Shown piece after piece: positions 27,945-30,136 of a stretch of 64,000 nt of DNA. The notes beneath the pieces are model-generated. The model saw only the letters and a program-made list of their open reading frames with translations, was not told the DNA's origin and did no database searches. The stretch lies in NCBI RefSeq assembly GCF_058153355.1, contig NZ_CM177019.1. The stretch is one strand, 5' to 3'. Positions within the stretch are counted from its first letter, which is position 1, and each line of letters starts with the position of its first letter. The position numbers were made by a program, and so were the translations under genes.

Positions 27945-28961
27945 ATGTCCACATTACGCCTGCTCATCTCTGACTCTTACGACCCGTGGTTTAACCTGGC
28001 GGTAGAGGAGTGTATTTTTCGCCAGATGCCCGCCACGCAGCGCGTTTTGTTTCTCTGGCGCAATGCCGACACGGTAGTGATTGGTCGCGCGCAGAACCCG
28101 TGGAAAGAGTGTAATACCCGGCGGATGGAAGAAGATAACGTTCGCCTGGCACGGCGCAGTAGCGGTGGCGGCGCGGTGTTCCACGATCTTGGCAATACCT
28201 GTTTTACCTTCATGGCTGGCAAGCCGGAATACGATAAAACGATCTCCACCTCGATTGTGCTCAATGCACTGAACGCGCTCGGTGTCAGCGCCGAAGCGTC
28301 CGGACGTAACGATTTGGTGGTGAAAACCGCCGAAGGCGACCGTAAAGTCTCAGGCTCGGCCTATCGCGAAACCAAAGATCGTGGCTTCCATCACGGCACC
28401 TTGCTACTCAATGCCGACCTTAGCCGCCTGGCAAACTATCTCAACCCGGATAAAAAGAAACTGGCGGCGAAAGGCATTACGTCGGTACGTTCCCGCGTGA
28501 CCAATCTGACCGAATTGCTGCCGGGAATTACCCATGAGCAGGTTTGCGAAGCCATAACCGAGGCCTTTTTCGCCCATTATGGCGAGCGTGTAGAAGCGGA
28601 AATTATCTCCCCGGACAAAACGCCGGACTTGCCGAACTTCGCCGAAACCTTTGCCCGCCAGAGTAGCTGGGAATGGAATTTCGGACAGGCTCCAGCGTTC
28701 TCGCATCTGCTGGATGAACGCTTTACCTGGGGCGGCGTAGAACTGCATTTCGACGTCGAAAAAGGCCATATCACCCGCGCCCAGGTGTTTACCGATAGCC
28801 TCAACCCCGCACCTCTGGAAGCCCTCGCCGGACGACTGCAAGGCTGCCTGTACCGCGCGGATATGCTGCAACAAGAGTGTGAAGCGCTGTTGGTTGACTT
28901 CCCTGAACAGGAAAAAGAGCTACGGGAATTATCGGCGTGGATGGCAGGGGCGGTGCGGTAA
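27945..28961 (+). CDS. lplA: Lipoate-protein ligase A
   Basis: 338-aa [31 protein letters not shown]... Confidence 0.95.
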
Positions 28962-28991
28962 CTCGCTGATTAAAATATCCAGGGAAGGAAA

Positions 28992-29256
28992 TATGATCGA
29001 TCTGAAGAACCAGGAACGGGAGATTATCAATTTAATGTTCAGCCAGGGTATATCCTGGCTAACCGCCGTGCGTATCAGGCATAAACTATCACTTGCTGAA
29101 GTTAGTAAAATGTTGGGTATCTCGATTAATTCTCTAAAACAAATCGAAAAGACGGAACGGCTTAGTTCAAACATCAAAAACAAAATGGCAGGAATTTATG
29201 GTTGTCCGCCAGAGTTGCTGATATGCCCTTACTGGATGACGGCTGAACATAAATGA
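28992..29256 (+). CDS. Hypothetical small HTH-like protein (occupies the position where K-12 carries yjjJ)
   Basis: 87 codons from MIDLKNQ with upstream ggaagga RBS; XRE-like helix-turn-helix stretch LSLAEVSKMLGISINSLKQIEK; low GC versus flanks. Confidence 0.35.
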
Positions 29257-29355
29257 ATAGATTCGTGAATAGATACTCGAATGGATTTAATTTTCTATCC
29301 ATATGAAAAATAATAGTAAATCTATAAATCAGTCGCTATTGATGAATAGATACTA

Positions 29356-29390
29356 AAAAGCCGGAGCGGTCTCCCGCTCCGGCTTCACAC
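29356..29390 (-). terminator. Rho-independent terminator downstream of deoD
   Basis: gccggagcgg tctc ccgctccggc hairpin followed by T-run on the minus strand. Confidence 0.6.
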
Positions 29391-29416
29391 GACAATCGCC
29401 TTTCAGCGAAACACAA

Positions 29417-30136
29417 TTACTCTTTATCGCCCAGCAGAACGGATTCCAGTGCGATTTTGATCATGTCGTTGAAGGTAGTCTGACGCTCAGCGGCAGTGGT
29501 TTGCTCGTGAGTGCGGATGTGGTCAGACACGGTGCAGATGGTCAGGGCTTTCGCGCCAAACTCTGCAGCCACGCCGTAGATACCAGCCGCTTCCATTTCC
29601 ACGCCGAGGATGCCGTATTTTTCCATCACGTCGAACATTTCGCCGTCCGGAGAGTAGAACAGGTCAGCGGAGAACAGGTTACCAACGCGAGCATCAATGC
29701 CCAGTGCTTTAGCTGCATCTACTGCGTTACGCACCATGTCGAAGTCAGCGATAGCGGCAAAGTCATGGTCTTTAAAACGGATGCGGTTAACTTTGGAATC
29801 GGTGCAGGCACCCATACCAATCACTACGTCACGCAGTTTTACGTGCGGCAGAACTGCACCACAGGAACCAACGCGAATGATTTTCTTCACGCCGAAATCG
29901 GTGATCAGTTCTTTAGTGTAGATGGAGCAGGACGGGATACCCATACCGTGGCCCATTACAGAAATTTTGCGGCCTTTGTAAGTACCGGTGAAGCCCAGCA
30001 TACCGCGAACGTTGTTCACTTCACGAGCATCTTCAAGGAAAGTTTCAGCAATATACTTCGCACGCAGCGGGTCGCCTGGCATCAAAACTACGTCAGCGAA
30101 ATCGCCCATTTCTGCATTAATGTGTGGAGTAGCCAT
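29417..30136 (-). CDS. deoD: Purine nucleoside phosphorylase DeoD
   Basis: ORF 29417..30193; start taken at [28 protein letters not shown] (239 aa). Confidence 0.95.

Follow-up and report, generated by a model that had tools for sequence, protein, structure and literature searches.

A small XRE-type helix-turn-helix gene in the place of yjjJ/hipH between lplA and deoD of Escherichia coli, and the repeat array beside it

The lplA-deoD spacer and the gene exchanged there

The window is the whole stretch of DNA that was analysed, 64,000 nucleotides in length. Within it, lplA and deoD are convergent and are separated by a spacer at positions 28962-29416. An earlier note on this DNA had described the spacer as only 455 bp long, lower in GC than its flanks, and containing the deoD terminator hairpin and an 87-codon plus-strand ORF at 28992..29256. 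The length was confirmed, as were the hairpin (29358-29385) and the lower GC (36-40% versus 52-59% in the flanks). The ORF was also found, with its start one base further on, at 28993 (Table 1). It is referred to here as S.

Table 1. Features of the lplA-deoD region, in window coordinates.
Feature	Position	Strand	Remark
lplA (lipoate-protein ligase A)	27945..28961	+	Left edge of the swapped segment lies at its stop codon
Shine-Dalgarno AAGGA of S	28985..28989	+	Read from the sequence
S, 87-aa XRE/Cro-C1-type HTH protein with extra N-terminal helix	28993..29256	+	Allelic alternative to yjjJ/hipH
CAT at the position of the K-12 hipH start codon	29248..29250	-	Right edge of the swapped segment
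Array site 1, TGAATAGAT	29254..29262	+	TGA inside the site is the S stop codon
Array site 2, TGAATAGAT	29266..29274	+	12 bp after site 1
Array site 3, degenerate in the window strain (CGAATGGAT)	29278..29286	+	12 bp after site 2
Spacer between sites 3 and 4	29287..29342	-	Predicted from its position to hold the hipH promoter in hipH haplotypes, reading towards lplA
Array site 4, TGAATAGAT	29343..29351	+	65 bp start-to-start after site 3; spacing the same in 11 hipH lineages
deoD intrinsic terminator hairpin	29358..29385	-	12-bp perfect stem, 4-nt loop, U-run on the deoD strand
deoD (purine nucleoside phosphorylase)	29417..30136	-	Right flank

S consists of 87 codons plus TGA, and the same CDS is present in the RefSeq annotation of a 100% identical genome. 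It starts 31 nt past the lplA stop on the same strand, with no terminator in the gap, and AAGGAA is found at a comparable position upstream of the S orthologues from Salmonella and a JGI metagenome. The hairpin downstream (stem arms 29358-29369 and 29374-29385; fold -33 kcal/mol, z = -4.3) was assigned to deoD because the U-run comes after it on the deoD strand. An Rfam scan of the spacer detected no known RNA, and the only sub-threshold match was on the terminator. A conserved minus-strand ORF in the spacer was rejected, as the antisense ORFs are not the same from genus to genus, and the apparently low dN/dS of frame -1 mirrors, as is usual, that of the sense frame. A 13-nt inverted repeat (29032-29044 and 29241-29253, 12 of 13 positions complementary) brackets most of the S ORF, and its right arm overlaps the old hipH start position. 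An invertible segment, in which a flip at this repeat would place the hipH start ahead of a 73-aa form of S, was rejected. The repeat is probably due to chance, since it is absent from the S alleles of E. coli L004, Superficieibacter and UBA3516.

The statement in the earlier note that K-12 has a gene of about 1.3 kb, yjjJ, between deoD and lplA was correct. In MG1655, yjjJ/hipH (hipH below) is 1332 bp long, lies on the deoD strand and runs from the base after the lplA stop to its own ATG. When the window was aligned with K-12, homology ended at the lplA stop codon and restarted exactly at a CAT (29248), from which it ran through the repeat array and the terminator into deoD; the CAT is therefore the right edge of the swapped segment. 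What was swapped is exactly the coding sequence of hipH, its limits being the lplA stop codon and the hipH start codon. The segment present only in the window (28962-29247) is AT-rich and unrelated to hipH in any frame or on either strand, and S is for this reason not a yjjJ remnant. A remnant in another frame was one of two outcomes that, according to the earlier note, would have overturned its reading. The best BLASTP match had an E-value of 0.18 over 6 residues, and comparison with six hipH orthologues gave only 9-11-mers at chance level with blastn-short and nothing significant with tblastx. Because the K-12 locus has no such gene, S is foreign DNA in place of the hipH coding sequence. Of the suggestion that a deletion or replacement had left an orphan regulator, the replacement was upheld, but the gene was not left over from a locus that lacks it in K-12. 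S is encoded on the strand opposite to hipH, which codes for a kinase toxin of the HipA family that carries an N-terminal HTH of its own.

The S protein is named "helix-turn-helix domain-containing protein" in RefSeq (WP_000566247.1). Pfam matches were obtained to HTH_3 (PF01381) with a modest score (i-E-value 7.8e-5, residues 25-75), to Sigma70_r4 (1.7e-5) and to HTH_19, HTH_25 and HTH_31; PF01381 is precomputed for many S orthologues, and PHROG 7241, "transcriptional regulator", matched at 2e-9. The AlphaFold2 model (pLDDT 89.1, pTM 0.80) has an N-terminal helix followed by a five-helix XRE core. The best PDB matches of the model in Foldseek were all XRE domains, among them DdrO as well as CylR2, C.BclI, C.AhdI, the SinR N-domain, P22 c2 and 434 Cro, which resemble S in size and in the five-helix HTH core. 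The closest of these matches had a probability of ~1.0 and an rmsd of 1.5-2.1 Å over 53-60 columns, with TM-scores of 0.62-0.76 by target length and 0.50-0.58 by query length. S differs from such stand-alone regulators in its extra N-terminal helix and C-terminal tail, and no R-M system, cytolysin or phage partner gene lies near it. The XRE-like HTH that had been noticed from the letters was thus borne out by Pfam (the profile search that the earlier note had asked for), AlphaFold2 and Foldseek: S has both the profile and the five-helix fold of the XRE/Cro-C1 family. It is an uncharacterised member of a known family, already annotated generically by RefSeq, and is predicted to be a small DNA-binding regulator. 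A literature search for the protein found nothing relevant.

Outside the S orthologues, the nearest sequence relatives are PHROG 7241 and the proteins P0083, P0095 and P0097 (100-130 aa), which share with S a helix, SLLAAWR, the HTH and IY.C..EQL. Proteins of the P0083/P0095/P0097 type differ in an extra N-terminal domain of ~50 aa, absent from S, and in their unrelated, apparently mobile contexts, e.g. a SocA_Panacea neighbourhood. Membership of the sigma-70 family was rejected, as the Sigma70_r4 match is partial (model positions 5-42 of 50, over the HTH), there is no region 2 and the protein has only 87 aa; TIGR02937 scored 18 bits versus a cut-off of 42.9. Some RefSeq records call truncated versions of S "sigma factor-like". 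A type II toxin-antitoxin module was also rejected, as the spacer has no conserved second ORF.

S is a real functional gene under purifying selection, which is moderate and sometimes relaxed. Within E. coli, dN/dS was 0.12-0.23 in the annotated frame versus ~1 or more in shifted frames, and between genera it was 0.34-0.62, the annotated frame being the lowest. Intact orthologues of 86-87 aa (40-48% identity) were found in Superficieibacter, UBA3516, Salmonella enterica and metagenomic contigs, always in the order lplA, S, convergent deoD, and they span lineages with saturated S dS relative to the E. coli type and an lplA dS >1. The intact orthologues in other genera and the low dN/dS of the annotated frame set S apart from a chance ORF. 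The family is narrow, with a single slot in the chromosomes of Enterobacteriaceae as its only location; among 1.8 billion cluster representatives searched, only the slot orthologues and fragments matched, followed by generic HTH proteins and the 100-130-aa relatives. The C-terminal tail is conserved (C-P-x-x-L-L-x-x-P-x-W), the extra N-terminal helix covers residues 4-18, and helix 3, with the predicted base-contact residues, reads ISINSLKQ in E. coli versus ITPDALKR and ITPESLAR in other S lineages. Two of the seven E. coli S loci sampled contain a pseudogene (internal stop in O111:H8, frameshift in GN02270), S is deleted in HS-02, and many truncated S protein clusters are on record.

Between Salmonella enterica (L100 2501-2764) and the UBA3516-like loci (L021/L104), pS was 0.24 in S and 0.64 in the adjacent lplA. 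Recent lateral exchange of the cassette or constraint at synonymous sites could account for the difference; raw identity profiles of Salmonella and UBA3516-like sequences gave no clear transferred block.

Distribution and age of the two haplotypes

The S-type spacer, counted when at least 80% of its length was present, was found in 4037 of 5426 complete E. coli genomes (74%), and hipH in 1346 (25%). The two classes sum to 5383, and no genome had more than one of the two. Neither hipH nor its HTH-coding part was found in a second place in any genome, or anywhere in the genomes with S. From these counts K-12 has the minority form, and the small-ORF form is the majority allele of E. coli, which does not support the use of K-12 as the reference state in the earlier note. 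The hipH form, designated Y, occurs in K-12, CFT073, ST131, E. albertii, many Salmonella, Erwinia and others. Both forms occur inside single phylogroups; B2, for example, includes the Y strains CFT073 and ST131 as well as the S strains E2348/69 and ATCC 25922. In the lplA and deoD flanks, divergence between haplotypes was not raised, and the within-class and between-class values were alike.

Several other features of the surrounding genes were observed. lplA is unusually diverged within E. coli, with a dS of 0.26 between the window (27945-28961) and K-12 (L001 1501-2517). The 3' half of the gene varies by 4-8% per 150 bp, compared to ~0.5-2% in the ytjB region and distal deoB, and the divergence of lplA is equally high within and between haplotype classes. 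Just upstream of lplA, ytjB is annotated as a pseudogene without its C-terminus in O157:H7 ECP17-1298 (L085 1829-2470). In CFT073, a NadS-family HTH gene, paired with a RelE/ParE-family toxin gene, lies a few kb from the locus in the nadR-ettA gap (L003 861-1479), and an IS200C transposase gene lies between the hipH upstream region and deoD (L003 8561-9019), where it may part some array sites from hipH.

An LplA-anchored scan of one genome per species gave 80 loci, and the lplA-deoD spacer could be measured in 75. It was gene-free and at most 105 bp long in 50 of the 75 representatives; hipH was present in 6, S in 3 and hipH fragments in 2, and the remaining spacers contained unrelated insertions. 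Orthologues of hipH (48-58% identity) are found at this chromosomal position in Salmonella and Cedecea, where the order is deoD-hipH-lplA, in Erwinia (deoD-hipH-ytjB) and in Pantoea (yjjG-like-hipH-ytjB). Thus placed beside ytjB-serB, hipH and the array occur in both Enterobacteriaceae and Erwiniaceae, even where lplA or deoD is not a neighbour. Fragments of hipH or relics of the array were detected in the short spacers of L029, L040, L019, L020, L022 and E. whittamii (L005), and Y, S and empty forms all occur in Salmonella enterica, as they do in E. coli. As hipH is syntenic out to Erwinia and Pantoea, it was taken to be the older occupant. We read these comparisons as indicating that hipH is an old resident, probably lost many times and replaced by S once or a few times.

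The spacer is also a general insertion hot spot in Enterobacteriaceae. Inserts there include REP-associated tyrosine transposase-like, fimbrial-subunit-like, small lipoprotein and 406-aa secreted protein genes (L083 7103-7471, L032 7106-7744, L037 7141-7866, L056 7170-7859, L028 7053-7388 and L066 7063-8283), and none of these six loci has the TGAATAGAT array.

The repeat array in hipH and S haplotypes

All 11 hipH lineages examined have three tandem copies of TGAATAGAT at a 12-bp period and a distal fourth 65-66 bp past the third (L001 3850-3965 in K-12; L094-L098, upstream of hipH; the counterpart in the window, an S haplotype, is at 29254-29351). The tandem sites end 1-3 nt before the hipH ATG, or 16 nt before it in Pantoea. 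In these lineages, in which HipH is 48-69% identical, the 9-nt cores are 89-97% identical versus 44-58% at other positions, and the N-terminal HTH and wing of HipH (SQATFSR...GKARATRYAL) is nearly invariant across the same lineages. A canonical sigma-70 promoter was not detected in the array module. We infer that the array is a candidate promoter/operator module of hipH. The gene is monocistronic and its control is an open question, and the N-terminal HTH of HipH/YjjJ has been proposed as a cis-acting regulator (PMC8262856). HipH's own HTH most probably binds the array in Y strains, as a candidate autoregulator.

The array is kept in S haplotypes in the same geometry as in Y. Across genera, the site cores of S haplotypes are 89-93% identical versus 48-63% at non-core positions (p = 4e-5 to 0.012). 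Between its sites, E. coli S is 52-60% identical to the S haplotypes of other genera, versus 42% to E. coli Y, which argues for a long association of the array with S and for its retention in the absence of HipH. Each E. coli genome has the triple array once, and a perfect 36/36 match was found in 3100 genomes, a number above the Y count; subtraction of the 1346 Y genomes leaves ~1750 S genomes with a perfect triple array. No second copy of the array and no paralogue of the hipH HTH was found in S genomes. No empty spacer contained the array, which was confined to loci with hipH, S or relics of these. Site polymorphisms and deletions of 12-bp units occur among E. coli S alleles, and in two lineages (Salmonella L100 and L093) the array has collapsed to one degenerate site beside an intact S.

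The HTH of HipH and the S protein are alike in that each is the sole DNA-binding element encoded beside the array in its haplotype. They differ in type, the HipH HTH being weakly MarR_2-like and that of S XRE, and in orientation, since the genes are on opposite strands and hipH reads away from the array, S into it. Remote homology between the two HTHs was rejected (hhalign probability 9%, generic HTH register only). A literature search for the array sites found no mention in searchable papers, and the S/Y dimorphism, its depth and the array appear to be undescribed in the searchable literature.

Possible roles of S and of the retained array

With moderate confidence, we regard the lplA-deoD slot as an old two-haplotype locus, S versus Y, of which the window carries S; this confidence refers to the explanation as a whole, comprising the S haplotype, the retained and constrained array, and the regulation proposed here. 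S would be made by read-through from ytjB-lplA, given that the lplA-S gap is only 6-70 nt and has no terminator and no promoter able to yield the annotated S mRNA. The sole plus-strand sigma-70 match overlaps the S start codon and therefore could not give that mRNA. The retained array module would aim a regulated promoter antisense into S and lplA, and S may act on this module, substituting for the lost HTH of HipH and keeping the orphaned hipH promoter under control.

Control of the orphaned module by S is the version that we prefer, tentatively. Against it, the XRE-type S and the wHTH/MarR-like HTH of HipH have no homology, the predicted base-contact residues of S vary among lineages in which the sites are the same, and S is intact where the array has collapsed. 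XRE operators do not usually consist of tandem direct repeats. A functional rewiring, in which an unrelated XRE protein took over the HipH operator array so that two non-homologous HTHs read the same three-plus-one TGAATAGAT sites, is a more doubtful proposition. If it were true, Escherichia and Salmonella would maintain the S/Y dimorphism as a choice between two regulatory states at a single locus, an autoregulated toxin kinase and a stand-alone repressor with an antisense promoter.

About equally likely as control by S, and possible to a similar degree, is that an unlinked host transcription factor, e.g. one that carries the c-di-GMP signal, binds the array in both haplotypes, and that S regulates other targets or acts as an antitoxin-like protein elsewhere. 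The retained promoter would then merely give signal-dependent antisense transcription across S and lplA. A single binder for identical sites is more parsimonious than two unrelated HTHs converging on one 9-mer; sites and geometry are equally constrained in S and Y haplotypes, and both the variation of the predicted base-contact residues and the persistence of S after collapse of the array fit a binder other than S. c-di-GMP acts through the hipH promoter region, and HipH depends on its HTH for toxicity and for binding to the nucleoid (PMC11452175), so that the domain could be conserved for reasons other than autoregulation. However, as the triple array occurs once per E. coli genome, no further target of this kind would be available to such a factor; the array is restricted to loci with hipH, S or their relics, and no candidate factor emerged.

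It is unlikely that S is a decaying passenger and the array an eroding relic of the displaced hipH promoter, in a spacer without current function. The pseudogenes and the loss of S in one strain, the truncated clusters, the polymorphisms and unit deletions in the array, its collapse in two lineages and an S dN/dS of up to 0.6 in some pairs would all fit such decay. Pure decay is made unlikely by the conservation across genera: 86-87-aa orthologues are intact in lineages with saturated S dS and an lplA dS >1, the annotated frame has the lowest dN/dS, and the array cores are conserved far above neighbouring bases between the S haplotypes of different genera. The ~1750 S genomes with a perfect triple array also argue against it.

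Less likely again is that S is a putative orphan HipB-type antitoxin against HipH-like kinases, with the S haplotype as an "immunity" allele. S and HipB are both small XRE-fold HTH proteins (87 versus 88 aa) tied to the locus of a HipA-family kinase, and S and hipH are strict alternatives at one slot. HipB can neutralise YjjJ/HipH and rescues YjjJ toxicity in K-12 (PMC9948734). Matches of S to antitoxin families were weak (NadS in NCBIfam, 0.0035; PezA, 0.034; PHROG "antitoxin with HTH", 0.012). The NCBIfam models for HipB (NF007271) and Y4mF/couple_hipB (TIGR03070) did not match S at E <= 1, no HipB chain was among the PDB sequence matches at E <= 1, and no palindromic operator was found upstream of S. 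Unlike HipB, S takes the place of the kinase rather than accompanying it: S genomes have no hipH to neutralise, and neither a kinase gene, as in a hipBA-type operon, nor any other toxin gene adjoins S in any context examined.

That S or an empty spacer is ancestral, as the earlier note had offered as one option, and that hipH was inserted later in K-12-type lineages, is very improbable: although empty spacers are commonest among species representatives (50 of 75) and S is the majority allele in E. coli, hipH lies in the slot with the same array out to Cedecea, Salmonella, Erwinia and Pantoea, beside ytjB-serB in both families, several short spacers have hipH fragments or array relics, and the array, which S haplotypes contain, makes sense only as the upstream region of hipH.

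The preferred reading, an old S/Y locus with a retained and constrained array, bears on what has been reported for HipH/YjjJ, a toxin linked to persistence and genome stability for which nearly all work has been done in K-12 and a few UPEC strains. Since ~74% of complete E. coli genomes have another gene in place of hipH, the finding affects how far hipH phenotypes generalise. The three-plus-one TGAATAGAT array at the hipH ATG is a concrete candidate operator set, which bears on the open question of hipH control (PMC8262856) and on the site of action of c-di-GMP (PMC11452175). The alternation of S and Y in both E. coli and Salmonella enterica, together with constraint on the array without HipH, provides a tractable natural experiment on the replacement of a toxin locus and the fate of its control region.
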